64,000 nucleotides of DNA from an uncultured Gammaproteobacteria bacterium (GTDB taxonomy: Bacteria; Patescibacteriota; Microgenomatia; CAZXEC01). The position numbers were made by a program, and so were the translations under genes. The notes beneath the pieces are model-generated. The model was not told the DNA's origin, made no database searches, and saw only the letters and a program-made list of their open reading frames with translations. Positions 6,854 to 12,793 of the stretch are shown piece by piece. Every line of letters starts with the position of its first letter. Position 1 is the first letter of the stretch. The stretch covers positions 187,750 to 251,749 of the forward strand of contig CAZXEC010000001.1 of NCBI GenBank assembly GCA_964639595.1. Reading direction: 5' to 3'.

Positions 6854-7306
6854 ATGTTGTGTCCCTTTTGCGGCAATCAAGAAACACGGGTAGTTGATAA
6901 AAGGGAGCAAGACAACAAAACTACTAGACGCAGAAGAGAGTGTTTTGGCTGCAGCAGGCGATTCACGACTTTCGAGAGGGCAGAGACACTGGATACTTTA
7001 GTGATAAAAAAGGACAACCATAGAGAGGCGTTTGATCGGTTAAAAATAAGAAACGGTATTGTAAAGGCTTGTGAGAAGCGCCCGGTGAGCGCAGATCAGA
7101 TCGAAGCAATGGTTGATACGGTTGAGAGAGAGGTCAGGGCCCTGTCGGCCAGAGAGATATCTTCCAAGAAAATTGGGGAATTGGTAATGAGGGTCTTGCG
7201 CAAGGTTGATAAAGTGGCGTATATTCGGTTTGCGTCAGTTTACCGGGAATTTACAGACCTGGCTGATTTCCAAAAAGAAGTTGCCAAACTGATCAACAAA
7301 AAGTAG
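6854..7306 (+). CDS. nrdR: transcriptional repressor NrdR (zinc ribbon + ATP-cone)
   Basis: N-terminal CPFCG...CFGCSRRF zinc ribbon followed by an ATP-cone; 150 aa. Confidence 0.9.
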   Translation: MLCPFCGNQETRVVDKREQDNKTTRRRRECFGCSRRFTTFERAETLDTLVIKKDNHREAFDRLKIRNGIVKACEKRPVSADQIEAMVDTVEREVRALSAREISSKKIGELVMRVLRKVDKVAYIRFASVYREFTDLADFQKEVAKLINKK

Positions 7307-7375: not shown

Positions 7376-10300
7376 ATGGCTACAAAAAATAAACCACACA
7401 GTAAAAAAGATAAAACTAAGTATCAATCCCGATTTAATCCCCGATTCAATCGGGGTAATCAAGATCAACAAGTAGCCTCTGCCAAAAAGACTGCTAGAAA
7501 AAAGAAGTACACCCAAGAGGAAGTCTGGGCACTTGGCAAAAATATTCCGCCGGTCCCGGCAGATTTGTCTGAACCTCAACTTTCTGAAACTGCATTCTAC
7601 ATAGCCAAAACACGATATGCTCTGCGTAATGATAAGAGTGAGCCGATAGAGTCGGCGCGTGAGATGTTTTGGCGGGTGGCATATAACATCGCTTGCGCAG
7701 ATCTTCTGTATCATGGCGACAGGAATAAAATGATTGAACAGGCCCAAAAGTTTTATAATTTAATGGCTTCTCAAAAATTTATTCCCAATACTCCCACCAT
7801 GCTCAACGCCGGCAAACCGATGCAGCAATTATCAGCTTGTTTCGTTTTGCCGATTGAAGATGATATGAAGTCAATCGCCAAAACCCTGGTTGATATGGTG
7901 ATGATTCACAAGTCTGGTGGCGGCACCGGCTTTTCTTTCTCCAGACTAAGGCCTTATGGTGATGTGATTAAGTCTTCCGGCGGCACCACCGTGGGTCCGA
8001 CTTCTTTTTTACAAGCTTACAATGATGTGACTTCCCAAATTAAACAAGGCGGAGTCAGGCGCGGTGCCAATATGGGCATTATGCACATCACCCATCCGGA
8101 TATTTTGAGATTTGCGGTGATGAAAGTTGATGAGTTTAATTTGACTAATTTTAATATTTCAGTAACTGTCACCGAAGAGTGGATGGATCAGGTTGGCAAG
8201 GATCAGCGGTTTGTTAATAGTGAGCCTGATTGGGAAGAAGTTATTGGAGAAATTAAATCTGCCCAGACTATTCGTGATGTTGATTTAAAACTTAAAAAGA
8301 CTGAAGACGGCGTCAGGAAATTATACGATTTGGTCAAAGCTACTCAACCGGATGAGGGTTACGATTTAATAAATCCCAGAAGCCAGCAGACAGTCGGCAA
8401 ACTGAATGCCTATAAAGTTTTCTTACTTATTACCCAACTGGCTTGGCATTATGGTGATCCGGGAATGATTATGATTGATAGGATCAATAAATCAGGTGCT
8501 AATCCCACTCCACATCTGGGACAGATTGAGGCTACTAACCCTTGTGTTACAGGTGACACTATAATTTCTACAGGAGAAGGGCTTATTCCCATGAAAGAAG
8601 TGGTGGAAAGCCATTTTGCCGGAGGAAAAAGATTCGGTGGTAATATGTCTTTGATCATTGATACCAGGACGCTTAATCATAAAACTGGCGGAACTTTACC
8701 AGGACGTGCTGTTAAGTTCTTTGATAATGGGATTAAGGAAGTTTGGAGACTGACTACTAAATCCGGTTTTACTTTGACAGCTACGCCAGATCATCAATTG
8801 CTCACACCAAAAGGTTGGGTGAAACTTCGAGATCTCAATACAGGAGACATAGTTTTGATCCAAAGCGGTAGAGGAGAATTCGGCAAAAACCGCCAGCTAC
8901 CGATTATCTCGAAGATTCCAACCATGCCTAATGACTGGAGCAAGGAATTGGGCATGGTTCTGGGATGGTTGATAGGAGATGGATGGGTAAGAACTGGAGA
9001 TAAAAACTGTCGAGTTGGTTTCACATTTGGTAAGGATGACCTAGATAGCCTCAATTATATACAGAATCTGATGAATAATTGGTATGGCAAAGACGTGAAG
9101 GCAGTAAAGAGAGAAAGAAATAATACCCATTTATCTTATCATAGTAGGGGGCTAGTAGATTTCTTTGTAAAACTAGGAGTAAAACCAGTTAAAGCTGCCG
9201 ACAAATTAGTTCCAGAGTCAATTTATACTGCGCCTGTTGAGGCAGTGGTAGGATTTTTACAAGGACTTTTTACTGCTGATGGTACGGTTAATTTCAAAAA
9301 AGGTCGTAATGCTTATGTAAGATTGACTTCTAAATCAAAATTATTACTGCAAGGCGTACAACTCTTGCTGCTTAATTTAGGCATATACTCCAAAATCTAT
9401 GACAGGAGTCGGGATTCAAGAATGGGGATGTTTCCTTACAAAAATAAGAGCGGTCAGCTGAAGACTTATACTCTGGATGGTGTTCTATTCGAGTTGTCGA
9501 TTTCAAAACAATCAGTAATGAAGTTTCTATCTGAAGTAGGTTTCCTTTCGGATCGCCACCAAGATAAGATTTCTAAATTTTCCACCCAAGATTTCTACGC
9601 TGATAAATTTGTAGATACTGTTTCCGAAATTAAACCATTTGGGAGGCAGCGAGTTTACGATTTAACCGAAGAGAAAAGTTTGACTTTTATTACTAACGGA
9701 ATAGTTAGCCTTGATTGTGGCGAGCAGCCGCTTCTGCCTTATGATGCCTGCACCTTGGGTTCAATTAACCTAGGGAAATTCGTCAAAGATGGTCAGATTG
9801 ATTACCAGGCCCTGGGTGAGGTTTCCCAAGAATGTGTGCACTTTTTAGATAACGTGCTTGATATGAATGCTTATCCTATTGCCGAAATTGCCGAAATGAC
9901 AAGAAAGGTAAGAAGAATTGGCTTGGGTGTAATGGGTTTGGCAGATCTTTTAGTCCAGGTGGAAATAGGATATAACACTGATGATGGTTTATCGTTGGCA
10001 GAAGATGTCATGGCCCATATTCAAGAATCTGCCAAAGAGGGCAGTATTAAATTGGCGCAAGTTCGCGGGGTATTCCCTGCCTGGAAAGGTTCAATTTTTG
10101 ATGATAAAAGTCCGCATTTCTTGGGGAAAAAGTTAATGATACGAAATGCGGCGGTTACTACTATTGCCCCAACTGGGACTATTGCCATGTTGGCTGATGC
10201 TTCGTCTGGAATTGAACCATATTTTGCCTTGTCTTATGCTAAAAATACTATTGAGGGCAAAAGACTATTTAATATCAACCCTTTCTTTTTGGAAATTGCC

Positions 10301-11299
10301 AAGAGGGAAGGTTTTTACTCGGAAGAATTATTGGAGAAAGTAGAACAAAACAGCGGATCAGTTGCTGGTTTGGCAGAAGTGCCGGAAAGATGGCAAAAAG
10401 TTTTTGTGGTTACCCGTGATATTACTCCGGAGTGGCATGTTAAAATGCAGGCCGCTTTCCAAAAACACGTTGACAATGCCATTTCCAAAACCATCAATTT
10501 TTCCAACAGCGCTACAGTGGAAGACGTCAGACACGCATACATGATGGTATATGAAACCGGTTGTAAGGGGATTACTATTTATCGCGATGGCTCGAGACAA
10601 AAACAGATCCTTGAGGTTAAAAAAGAAGGCTCCTATTATGACCAGTTGGCTGGTAAGCCAACTGGCGATGGAGTATCAAAAAACGGCCATGATAAAACCA
10701 TTGCTGTGGGGGACGATATGACCCCATACTTGCCCACTGCCAAGCCGCTTAAGGCTAAGGCTCCCGGAGAAGCTTGGGGAGTGAGATTGAAAAAGAAAAG
10801 CGATGTTGGCAATGTCTACACAGCAGTATACAGGGATGCTGACGGTAAACCGGTGGAGGTGTTTATTAATGTGGGTAAGTCCGGAGGATATGTGGCAGGG
10901 GCAGCAGAAGTGACCGGTAGGCTAGCTTCTCTGGCTTTAAAGCATGGAGCGGCCCTGGAAGAGGTAGCGGCGGAACTGGTGGGGATTGCCTGTGGAATTC
11001 CTTATGGTGTTGGCCCCAATGCTATTCTGTCAATGTTTGATGCTGCCGGTAAATCTGTTCTGGAGGCAGCTAAAACTAAACAGTTGCCATTGGCCATTGA
11101 TAATGGCGAATTTGAAGTTAGTCAACACGATGGTCATACCAAAGATAATCAACAAGAATCATTACTGCAAGCTCCAGAACAAGTCGGCATAGCGTACAAA
11201 ACTTTATTTGCTTCGTGCCCTGATTGCGGTTCTCAATTAGTGCTGGCTGAAGGTTGTCAAAAATGCTTAAATCCGGGATGCGGTTATAGTAAGTGCTAA
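7376..11299 (+). CDS. nrdJ: class II (adenosylcobalamin-dependent) ribonucleotide reductase NrdJ, containing a 391-aa intein and a C-terminal CxxC...CxxC tail
   Basis: The catalytic NP|CGEQPL motif is split by an intein. The C-terminus ends CPDCGSQLVLAEGCQKCLNPGCGYSKC. The N-terminal extension contains a palindromic-repeat insertion. Confidence 0.85.
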   Translation: MATKNKPHSKKDKTKYQSRFNPRFNRGNQDQQVASAKKTARKKKYTQEEVWALGKNIPPVPADLSEPQLSETAFYIAKTRYALRNDKSEPIESAREMFWRVAYNIACADLLYHGDRNKMIEQAQKFYNLMASQKFIPNTPTMLNAGKPMQQLSACFVLPIEDDMKSIAKTLVDMVMIHKSGGGTGFSFSRLRPYGDVIKSSGGTTVGPTSFLQAYNDVTSQIKQGGVRRGANMGIMHITHPDILRFAVMKVDEFNLTNFNISVTVTEEWMDQVGKDQRFVNSEPDWEEVIGEIKSAQTIRDVDLKLKKTEDGVRKLYDLVKATQPDEGYDLINPRSQQTVGKLNAYKVFLLITQLAWHYGDPGMIMIDRINKSGANPTPHLGQIEATNPCVTGDTIISTGEGLIPMKEVVESHFAGGKRFGGNMSLIIDTRTLNHKTGGTLPGRAVKFFDNGIKEVWRLTTKSGFTLTATPDHQLLTPKGWVKLRDLNTGDIVLIQSGRGEFGKNRQLPIISKIPTMPNDWSKELGMVLGWLIGDGWVRTGDKNCRVGFTFGKDDLDSLNYIQNLMNNWYGKDVKAVKRERNNTHLSYHSRGLVDFFVKLGVKPVKAADKLVPESIYTAPVEAVVGFLQGLFTADGTVNFKKGRNAYVRLTSKSKLLLQGVQLLLLNLGIYSKIYDRSRDSRMGMFPYKNKSGQLKTYTLDGVLFELSISKQSVMKFLSEVGFLSDRHQDKISKFSTQDFYADKFVDTVSEIKPFGRQRVYDLTEEKSLTFITNGIVSLDCGEQPLLPYDACTLGSINLGKFVKDGQIDYQALGEVSQECVHFLDNVLDMNAYPIAEIAEMTRKVRRIGLGVMGLADLLVQVEIGYNTDDGLSLAEDVMAHIQESAKEGSIKLAQVRGVFPAWKGSIFDDKSPHFLGKKLMIRNAAVTTIAPTGTIAMLADASSGIEPYFALSYAKNTIEGKRLFNINPFFLEIAKREGFYSEELLEKVEQNSGSVAGLAEVPERWQKVFVVTRDITPEWHVKMQAAFQKHVDNAISKTINFSNSATVEDVRHAYMMVYETGCKGITIYRDGSRQKQILEVKKEGSYYDQLAGKPTGDGVSKNGHDKTIAVGDDMTPYLPTAKPLKAKAPGEAWGVRLKKKSDVGNVYTAVYRDADGKPVEVFINVGKSGGYVAGAAEVTGRLASLALKHGAALEEVAAELVGIACGIPYGVGPNAILSMFDAAGKSVLEAAKTKQLPLAIDNGEFEVSQHDGHTKDNQQESLLQAPEQVGIAYKTLFASCPDCGSQLVLAEGCQKCLNPGCGYSKC
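7425..7460. repeat. palindromic element copy inside the nrdJ 5' coding region (TCCCGATTTAATC-CCCGATTCAATCGGGG-TAATC)
   Basis: Perfect palindrome CCCCGATTCAATCGGGG at 7437-7453 flanked by partial half-sites; translated as SRFNPRFNRGNQ. Confidence 0.7.
8543..9715 (+). mobile_element. intein with LAGLIDADG homing-endonuclease domain, inserted between P and C of the NrdJ NPCGE active-site motif
   Basis: Block A CVTGDTII, block B TATPDHQLLT, LAGLIDADG motifs LGWLIGDGWV and VVGFLQGLFTADGTV, block F/G VYDLTEEKSLTFITNGIVSLD followed by +1 Cys. The terminal residues are Leu-Asp rather than the canonical His-Asn. Confidence 0.8.
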
Positions 11300-11435: not shown

Positions 11436-12023
11436 GTGACTAAGTCTCGGCTTTACACCAGGACAGGCGATGGTGGTACTACTGGATTATTGGGTGGAAA
11501 AAGAATTGATAAAGATGATCAACTGCTTGAGGCTTATGGAACAATTGACGAGCTGTCATCTTGGATAGGACTTGCCAGATCTGTTGCCAAATTCAGGCAA
11601 TATAAGACAATTCTTCAGGATATCCAACATGATTTATTTATCATGGGAGCTGATCTGGCTAGTCTTTTTGCTAGAAAAAAAGCACGTCAACCCCGATTTA
11701 ATCGGGGTAATCGGGGTCAAAATATCCCCCAACTGACAGCAGATGATTGGCAGAAATTAGAGCGATTGATTGACACGTTTGATGAAAAATCGCCTCCTTT
11801 GAGATCGTTTATTCTACCCGGCGGGACAGAACTGGCGTCCAGATTACATATTTGTAGGACTATTACCAGGCGGGCAGAAAGACAACTGGTGAAATTGTCA
11901 AAAAAAACTAAAGTGCGAGCTGTTGATTTAATTTATCTGAACCGCCTGTCTGATCTATTTTTTGCTATGGCCAGGGCGGGCAATCGGCAAGCCAAAGTTG
12001 CAGACTTACTGGCAGCCAGATGA
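11436..12023 (+). CDS. PduO-type ATP:cob(I)alamin adenosyltransferase
   Basis: YTRTGDGGTT and ILPGG motifs; sits directly downstream of the B12-dependent nrdJ. A palindromic-repeat insertion encodes RQPRFNRGNRGQ. Confidence 0.75.
   Translation: MTKSRLYTRTGDGGTTGLLGGKRIDKDDQLLEAYGTIDELSSWIGLARSVAKFRQYKTILQDIQHDLFIMGADLASLFARKKARQPRFNRGNRGQNIPQLTADDWQKLERLIDTFDEKSPPLRSFILPGGTELASRLHICRTITRRAERQLVKLSKKTKVRAVDLIYLNRLSDLFFAMARAGNRQAKVADLLAAR
11691..11716. repeat. palindromic element copy inside the pduO-type gene (CCCCGATTTAATCGGGG-TAATCGGGG)
   Basis: Perfect 17-bp palindrome 11691-11707 plus an extra half-site; translated as QPRFNRGNRGQ. Confidence 0.7.
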
Positions 12024-12032
12024 CGTAGTGTA

Positions 12033-12326
12033 TCAAAATACGAAAATTATTTTTGCCAGGATATTGTTTTTGGTGATTGGCCCAAAATGTCGACTGTCTG
12101 ATGATGATCTGGGGTTATCTCCCAAAACCCAGTAGGTATTGTGATCAACTCGGGTGATCCTTTTGATGATAACGCGATTTTCTTGGGGATGTTTAACAAC
12201 CACGACATCTCCTTTCCTGGGTGAGGTGAACCAATATGGGGTGGAGCTGGCAATGATTTGTTGATTCTCTCTCAATTCTGGCTCCATGCTGTGGCCATAA
12301 ATTTTGAAGCGACCAAGAAGAAGCAT
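12033..12326 (-). CDS. sodX: NiSOD maturation peptidase SodX (S26 signal-peptidase-like)
   Basis: GHSMEP (Ser), KRIT (Lys) and GDNPRSSSDSRHFGPI boxes; overlaps the sodN stop (ATGA). Confidence 0.75.
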   Translation of the reverse strand: MLLLGRFKIYGHSMEPELRENQQIIASSTPYWFTSPRKGDVVVVKHPQENRVIIKRITRVDHNTYWVLGDNPRSSSDSRHFGPITKNNILAKIIFVF

Positions 12327-12793
12327 TATTTTTTGGCAGCAGCCGCTTCGGCACCGCCTGCTGCTGCTTTCGCTTTGGCAAACATGTCGGCAATTTCATC
12401 AACCGCAGTTTTTAATTCTTGAGCCGCTGCCATATTTACTTCCTGCTTGTTTTTAGAGCAGAGTTTGGCAGCTTTCCAGAACACCTCATGAAGCCCGGGA
12501 AACATTGATAAATGTTCTGGTTTGAAAAAGTCAGTCCAGAGAATCAACAGCTCTTCTTTACATTTTTGGGCATGTTCTTCTTTGGTTTTTACCATCCTGA
12601 CAAAGGAATTACGGTCAGCAATCGTAGGATTGTCTTTGGGCAAAGCCTCAATTTTTTCCACCATTTTCGCTACAGTATCAGCGGCAATTTGGGCAGGACA
12701 AGGATCATAAATTCCGCAAGGCACATCACAATGAGCCCAGGCTGTTTGTTGGGGAATGATATTAAGTAGTATTCTTAAAAATTGCTTGACCAT
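12326..12793 (-). CDS. sodN: nickel superoxide dismutase precursor (Ni-hook HCDVPCGIYDP after a cleavable leader)
   Basis: Leader ...QQTAWA followed by HCDVPCGIYDP, which matches the NiSOD nickel-hook HCDLPCGVYDP. Confidence 0.85.
   Translation of the reverse strand: MVKQFLRILLNIIPQQTAWAHCDVPCGIYDPCPAQIAADTVAKMVEKIEALPKDNPTIADRNSFVRMVKTKEEHAQKCKEELLILWTDFFKPEHLSMFPGLHEVFWKAAKLCSKNKQEVNMAAAQELKTAVDEIADMFAKAKAAAGGAEAAAAKK

Follow-up and report, generated by a model that had tools for sequence, protein, structure and literature searches.

A LAGLIDADG intein with a Leu-Asp end in the NPCGE motif of a class II ribonucleotide reductase, and the Asp-type inteins allelic to it

The nrdJ gene and its intein

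The window analysed here (a stretch of 64,000 nucleotides from contig CAZXEC010000001.1 of assembly GCA_964639595.1) carries nrdJ, the gene of a class II ribonucleotide reductase (RNR), and this gene is interrupted by a LAGLIDADG intein. The intein splits the active-site motif of the enzyme at NP/CGEQ (slashes mark splice junctions throughout) and ends in Leu-Asp, where a canonical intein would end in His-Asn. The gene and its parts are laid out as follows.

7376–11299, + strand: nrdJ precursor open reading frame (ORF), class II adenosylcobalamin-dependent RNR with one intein (1307 aa; Pfam and match to 1xje)
7376–8542, + strand: N-extein, 389 aa, with the last residues ...GQIEATNP
8543–9715, + strand: intein, 391 aa (1173 nt), a HINT splicing domain with an inserted LAGLIDADG homing endonuclease (Pfam, AlphaFold2 (AF2) and Foldseek)
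9716–9718, + strand: +1 Cys (TGT), which serves as the nucleophile of the C-extein and is also the Cys in the active-site motif NPCGE
9716–11299, + strand: C-extein, 527 aa plus stop, with a C-terminal TSCPD domain and a Cys-rich tail

The ORF translation gives the two junctions as EATNP/CVTGDT ... FITNGIVSLD/CGEQPLLP. Pfam finds Ribonuc_red_lgN, Ribonuc_red_lgC and TSCPD on the host protein, and Intein_splicing on the intein with 46.8 bits (cut-off 35.8); the excised segment further matches LAGLIDADG_3 (78.9 bits) and LAGLIDADG_2 (26.1 bits). The NP/C boundary is supported by the 916-aa spliced extein, since this intein-free sequence aligns without a gap over ...TNPCGE... to the NrdJ of Thermotoga maritima (1xje, E 7e-104), and the same alignment puts the insertion directly before the NPCGE Cys. 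This +1 Cys we take to be the thiyl-radical Cys322 of T. maritima NrdJ. With a Cys at both junctions, the boundary NPC/V...LDC/G is also formally possible; it was rejected because the intein would then lack its N-terminal nucleophile. The original prediction, made from the letters of the window, had placed a 391-aa intein with both LAGLIDADG motifs at 8543–9715 and split the host motif at NP/CGEQ. The DNA codons and Pfam show these values to be exact, and the boundary also held when it was aligned with the NrdJ ortholog.

The residues on which splicing and the endonuclease depend are found at the following positions of the window copy.

8543–8560, + strand: block A, CVTGDT, in which Cys1 (TGT, 8543–8545) is the N-terminal nucleophile
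8777–8806, + strand: block B, TATPDHQLLT, with the TxxH pair Thr81 and His84
8960–8986, + strand: LAGLIDADG motif 1, LGWLIGDGW, acidic residue Asp146
9263–9286, + strand: LAGLIDADG motif 2, GLFTADGT, acidic residue Asp246
9653–9688, + strand: block F, VYDLTEEKSLTF, which retains Asp373 (F:4) and has Leu380 in place of the His at F:13
9674–9715, + strand: Asp-type C-terminal cassette, KSLTFITNGIVSLD, residues 378–391 (mutual information, codon diversity and identity comparison)

To see how these residues vary, we have aligned 77 complete inteins from the same insertion site, none of which contains a stop codon; 37 are of the Asp type and 40 of the Asn/Gln type. Cys1, Thr81 and His84 are invariant in 77/77, as is the +1 Cys (77/77), and Asp373, present in the window intein, is likewise invariant across the allelic inteins. 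Asp146 and Asp246 are each an Asp in 76/77, and with both catalytic acidic residues and the profile match present, the inserted domain is classed as a putative double-motif LAGLIDADG homing endonuclease.

In its insertion site, Cys1 and +1 Cys, TxxH pair, F:4 Asp, profile and fold, the element agrees with the class 1 inteins. It departs from them in the three residues expected at His F:13, His G:6 and Asn G:7, which are Leu380, Leu390 and Asp391 in the window; G:5 is Ser389. Leu390-Asp391 is encoded by CTT GAT at 9710–9715, with the GAT of Asp391 at 9713–9715. The Leu-Asp end in place of His-Asn had thus been read correctly, down to the base, in the original prediction, and both residues that it listed as replaced are indeed replaced, but the third replacement, of the block F His at F:13 by Leu380, had been overlooked.

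The AF2 model of the intein is of high confidence, with a predicted local distance difference test (pLDDT) score of 92.1 and a predicted template modelling (pTM) score of 0.92. Its best Foldseek matches are the Tli and Pho VMA inteins (7qsu, 7qss and 7qst), followed by PI-PfuI (1dq3); PI-PkoII and PI-SceI are also among the best structural matches, and I-DmoI-like matches were found too. The Asp ending is absent from the nearest solved relatives by sequence, all of which are distant.

The Asp ending among allelic inteins

The comparison with allelic inteins, which the original prediction had suggested, was made by a genome scan using one genome per species. The scan gave 447 loci encoding a relative of the intein, from which the best 80 were retained, and all 80 of these are inserted at NP/C.../C(G or A)E. 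Among these best 80 of the 447 loci, the Asp ending is shared by 38, comprising 33 that end in Leu-Asp (LD), four in Val-Asp (VD, all from Heimdallarchaeota) and one in Arg-Asp (RD); the others end in Ser-Asn (SN, 15), His-Asn (HN, 10), His-Gln (HQ, 14) or Thr-Gln (TQ, 3). The hosts of the Asp type include Planctomycetes, Omnitrophota, Methanoperedens and the Woese-, Nano-, Aenigmat- and Heimdall-archaeota, and also Gammaproteobacteria, WOR-3, Stahlbacteria and Patescibacteria. The ending had been called atypical, which is right in that it differs from the canonical HN; within the family, however, it is not rare.

The Asp ending was also seen in other collections. A protein database search with the intein returned 85 relatives with a top identity of 48%; the C-terminal junction is visible in 31 of them, five of which end in Asp (SLD or SRD), and the rest in SN, HN, RN, HQ or TQ. 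The matches of this search are all ≤685 aa long and mostly pieces of the gene with one end inside the intein, with none of the full-length precursors seen in genomes among them; such a search seems systematically to break up or miss intein-bearing genes. A DNA pattern of the cassette, which specified no extein residue beyond the +1 Cys, was found in 43 metagenome contigs; 41 of the hits lie at CGEQPL, and the other two are a chance match and a frameshifted copy. The same pattern gave no match in viral contigs. Seven viral relatives were found (27–33% identity), and all five with a located C-terminal junction end in His-Asn. The idea that the Asp type arose in viruses or was spread by them was therefore rejected, given the lack of the cassette in viral contigs and the His-Asn ends of the viral relatives.

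By mutual information, the positions that co-vary with the terminal Asp in the 77-intein alignment are 378, 380, 384, 389, 390 and 391, all within the last 14 residues. Besides the terminal residue itself (391), they behave as follows.

Position 378: polar in the Asp type; hydrophobic in the Asn/Gln type
Position 380 (F:13): Leu in 37/37 of the Asp type; His in 40/40 of the Asn/Gln type
Position 384: Thr or Ser in the Asp type; Cys or Ala in the Asn/Gln type
Position 389 (G:5): Ser in 35/37 of the Asp type; Val or Ile in 31/40 of the Asn/Gln type
Position 390 (G:6): Leu, Val or Arg in the Asp type; His, Ser or Thr in the Asn/Gln type

The alignment indicates that the Asp ending is part of a co-varying cassette, which includes the change of the block F His to Leu. 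The residue at F:13 can also be Phe, as in five Asp-type inteins from metagenomes (TFSF or TFTF in L092, L108, L121, L123 and L128), or Tyr, as in a protein match with an SRD end (P0052). What the Asp type needs at F:13 seems to be a residue that is not His and is hydrophobic or aromatic.

These residues have been kept while their codons changed. Among the Asp-type inteins, Leu at G:6 is encoded by all six Leu codons and Leu at F:13 by five, Ser draws on both of its codon families, and the terminal Asp is GAT in 29 cases and GAC in eight. The ratio of nonsynonymous to synonymous substitution rates (dN/dS) is 0.07–0.16 across nine pairs of Asp-type inteins. Amino acids that are kept through such synonymous turnover, together with a low dN/dS, point to a working rather than a decaying element. 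Judged from these comparisons, the Leu-Asp end is a conserved and selected trait of a widespread sub-family, and neither a defect nor a sign of decay.

The Asp type does not form one group. In neighbour-joining trees built without the cassette, 5–10 changes between Asp and non-Asp endings were counted (median 8, 100 bootstraps), where monophyly would give 1 and shuffled labels about 26. A single clean Asp-type clade was rejected on these numbers (5–10 changes against one expected), which come from crude distance trees with long branches. The clearest pair consists of two Omnitrophota inteins, L018 (LD) and L057 (SN), which are 29% identical in the 14-residue cassette and 65–72% identical elsewhere, that is, in the N-terminal splicing region, the endonuclease and the 32 residues leading up to the cassette; L057 has an Asp-type intein as its closest leaf in 100/100 bootstraps. 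The pairs L022/L026 and L020/L046 are also close relatives with differing cassette types. Since the cassette is flanked by an invariant VYDLTEP on one side and by the conserved extein on the other, its exchange by recombination is plausible from the sequences, with repeated substitution as the other possible source of the changes; at the L018/L057 switch, the surrounding DNA has diverged too far for a breakpoint to be visible. The GC content of the inteins (0.35–0.44) is near that of the host gene, and is uninformative on recent acquisition.

A few relatives show other variation close to the junction. One intein-bearing gene from Nanoarchaeota (L031) and one protein match (P0001) have a second intein 12 residues after the first, at ...CGEQPLLAWEP/CFAPDTF..., which is the next conserved NrdJ Cys; the window gene has no intein there. 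The extein just past the junction reads CAEQ for CGEQ in L005 (Methanoperedens) and CGEK in L044 (Woesearchaeota). The CAEQ of L005 alters the NPCGE motif; it may be genuine, or it may be an error.

Release of the intein and competing explanations

The first two steps of splicing would proceed as in the class 1 inteins. Cys1 would form a thioester, aided by Thr81, His84 and Asp373, and the +1 Cys would then take over the N-extein to give the branched intermediate. In the third step, the release of the intein, Asp391 would act in the role of Asn. The pocket around it would be histidine-free, with Leu at F:13, Leu at G:6 and Ser at G:5, and would be largely hydrophobic and rebuilt. There, the side-chain carboxyl(ate) of Asp391 may attack its own backbone carbonyl, forming a cyclic anhydride and cleaving the Asp/Cys bond, and an S-to-N shift would then restore NPCGE. 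We estimate that the window intein is splicing-competent and Asp-dependent with a probability of about 0.7, on the strength of its sequence and those of its alleles. The anhydride chemistry of step 3, proposed by analogy, has roughly even odds.

In canonical inteins, His F:13 has been proposed to deprotonate the Asn side chain in step 3, and His F:13 and His G:6 to stabilise the tetrahedral intermediate and activate the scissile bond (Mills et al., PMC4031507). That a carboxylate needs no general base is our proposed explanation of why His F:13 is always lost together with Asn. About 5% of inteins are without His G:6 (PMC4031507). Asp or Gln can substitute for the terminal Asn in functional inteins (PMC2807308), and can also cyclise in its place (PMC4031507), so that these two sources back the statement of the original prediction that inteins ending in Asp or Gln can splice by a variant route. 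Of the two readings it had offered, the one of a variant that still splices is favoured here, as the cassette is conserved in dozens of divergent alleles under purifying selection.

Work on an Asp345-ending intein, the RIR1 intein of Carboxydothermus hydrogenoformans (Chy RIR1), bears on this question. In the 2004 study by Amitai, Dassa and Pietrokovski, this intein is reported to splice, and each of the substitutions D345N, D345Q, D345E and D345A is said to abolish splicing, which would agree with an Asp-specialised pocket. The D345A variant reportedly kept C-terminal cleavage, however, and this is unexplained by cyclisation. It is one of several points that weigh against a competent, Asp-dependent intein in the window. 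Another is that the share of 38/80 is inflated, the query alignment having been Asp-rich and the 80 being the best of 447 loci. Two further points lie in the window copy itself, which has Glu377 where 76/77 relatives have Pro, and Ser379 where 76/77 have Thr (a count partly forced by the scan pattern, which demanded Thr there). Either residue could weaken splicing. Glu377, Lys378 and Ser379 (9671–9679) lie directly ahead of the Leu that replaces His F:13. Glu377 is shared by one metagenome relative (L131), and when the window cassette, KSLTFITNGIVSLD/CGEQ, is set against the sub-family pattern x-T-[LFY]-[ST]-F-[IV]-x-N-G-x-x-S-[LVR]-D, Ser for Thr at 379 is the sole departure.

The intein might also splice without any cyclisation of Asp391, the Asp/Cys bond being cleaved after the branched intermediate by direct hydrolysis or with the assistance of a thiol, with Asp, Ser389 and the hydrophobic residues serving solely to position the scissile bond. 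The Chy RIR1 results lean this way, with D345A said to keep C-terminal cleavage and D345N to give no rescue of splicing. The co-conserved Ser at G:5 (35/37), which has no role in the simple cyclisation model, also fits such a route, as does the remark that 'other mechanisms have been proposed' for inteins ending in Asp or Gln (Tori et al., PMC2807308). We nevertheless regard it as unlikely. The Asp is invariant while G:6 varies among Leu, Val and Arg, which argues for a chemical rather than a solely structural role; self-cleavage by way of an Asp anhydride is well documented (PMC7078468), and reviews treat Asp as able to cyclise (PMC4031507). A bolder extension of Asp-dependent splicing is that the histidine-free cassette is a distinct active site for intein release, an unrecognised mechanistic sub-class that is interchangeable with the Asn/Gln cassettes on one intein scaffold and has changed places with them several times among related inteins; this we consider doubtful.

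Two more alternatives concern the window copy alone. The genes on either side of nrdJ, listed here, bear on the first of them.

6854–7306, + strand: nrdR, Zn-ribbon and ATP-cone repressor of RNR genes, directly upstream
11436–12023, + strand: cobalamin adenosyltransferase (Pfam Cob_adeno_trans), directly downstream, which makes the cofactor form used by NrdJ

The copy could be impaired in splicing or dead, in which case the encoded NrdJ would be inactive or poorly active. All three canonical residues of step 3 (His F:13, His G:6 and Asn G:7) are gone from it, and the unusual Glu377 and Ser379 stand beside the cassette. But the same three replacements are found family-wide under purifying selection, the metagenome relative L131 has Glu377 as well, the ORF of 1307 codons is intact, and the remaining catalytic residues of intein, endonuclease and NrdJ are present. 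The placement of the gene speaks against a dead copy too: nrdR, nrdJ with its intein and the adenosyltransferase gene form a compact cluster on one strand, which is the setting expected for an NrdJ in use. In addition, tblastn with the extein and the intein turned up no further ORF resembling an RNR or an intein elsewhere in the window (a class III enzyme of very distant sequence would escape such a search), and with the same reservation this bears out the earlier description of nrdJ as the only RNR visible there. An impaired or dead intein is on these grounds very unlikely. It could lastly be asked whether CTT GAT is really a CAT AAT that was misread in sequencing or assembly, as the His-Asn and Leu-Asp readings are only two single-base changes apart. 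Three public contigs encode an identical 1307-aa protein, and two of them, the Logan assembly of SRR4343435 and NCBI GCA_016198195.1, show no difference from the window over the 7924 nt compared, although these assemblies are possibly from the same sample and their independence is limited. A matching third change, to TTG (Leu) rather than CAY (His), is found at F:13, 33 nt upstream, and the same cassette recurs in dozens of divergent relatives. An error is thus improbable in the extreme and was rejected on account of the duplicate contigs, the F:13 change and the conserved cassette. A re-sequenced locus with a canonical HN terminus had been named as an outcome that would overturn the original prediction; the other public contigs carry the same Leu-Asp.

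Two side observations were made at this locus. The first ~48 codons of nrdJ (7376–7520) encode a very basic, low-complexity N-terminus, MATKNKPHSKKDKTKYQSRFNPRFNRGNQDQQ..., and the real start codon may be farther downstream; an RFNRGN-like stretch (QPRFNRGNRGQ) is also found inside the downstream adenosyltransferase, with a weak tblastn link at 11688–11726. Further on, at 12033–12793 (− strand), a nickel superoxide dismutase (Sod_Ni) adjoins a small S24/S26-type peptidase, which is probably its maturation protease (Pfam labels taken from an identical contig).

For annotation, the nrdJ of this window should be entered as an intact gene with a probably functional intein, rather than as a pseudogene or a broken RNR. 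The homologous inteins ending in Asn, Gln and Asp at one site, with their differences confined to ~14 residues, amount to a natural experiment on the last splicing step, and the Asp-type sub-family may supply protein engineering with inteins that behave differently towards pH or redox conditions. If the proposal of a histidine-free sub-class were true, carboxylate chemistry could tie the maturation of NrdJ to conditions such as pH. The value rests with the sub-family, drawn from public data at large, while the single window copy is ordinary and adds little. It is the family-level pattern, that is, three terminal chemistries, an Asp strictly coupled to the loss of His and a possible exchange of cassettes, that may merit specialist attention.

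Comparison with known systems

With Chy RIR1, a splicing RNR intein that ends in Asp was already described in 2004, and the window intein is a further example of this known kind of variant intein. Both are described as Asp-ending inteins in an RNR. The Chy RIR1 intein is reportedly 345 aa long, and the window intein has 391 aa. The Chy RIR1 report is that of Amitai, Dassa and Pietrokovski (2004, JBC 279:3121), as cited in PMC4031507 and PMC2807308.

Gln-ending alleles (HQ or TQ) occupy the same NrdJ site in 17 of the best 80 loci. Inteins with a Gln end have been known since 1998–2004. Those of the CIV RNR and of Pol II in Pyrococcus abyssi and Methanoculleus marisnigri are likewise cases in which Asn is naturally replaced and splicing is retained (PMC4031507). 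The two types differ in the chemistry of the terminal residue, which is a carboxylate in the Asp type and an amide in the Gln type, and in what surrounds it: the Gln-type alleles keep His F:13 (16/16) and mostly His G:6, whereas the Asp type loses both.

With the canonical LAGLIDADG inteins of class 1 (7qsu, 7qss, 7qst, 1dq3 and PI-SceI), the window intein shares the two-domain fold (Foldseek E 7e-25 to 3e-20), Cys1, TxxH, the block F Asp, the +1 nucleophile and the two acidic LAGLIDADG motifs, although it is only 14–22% identical to these structures in the Foldseek alignments. Where the canonical inteins have His F:13, His G:6 and Asn G:7, the window has Leu, Leu and Asp.

For the proposed step 3, the nearest chemical parallel lies outside the inteins. 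In the self-processing module of FrpC, an Asp carboxyl attacks its own carbonyl to form a cyclic anhydride, and the chain is cleaved C-terminal to the Asp (PMC7078468). FrpC, one of the RTX proteins with Asp-Pro 'clip and link' processing, differs from the window intein in that its fold and family are unrelated, its reaction is triggered by Ca2+, the bond cleaved is Asp-Pro and no exteins are ligated; it is no relative of the intein, but serves as a chemical analogy for the way in which Asp391 could bring about its release.

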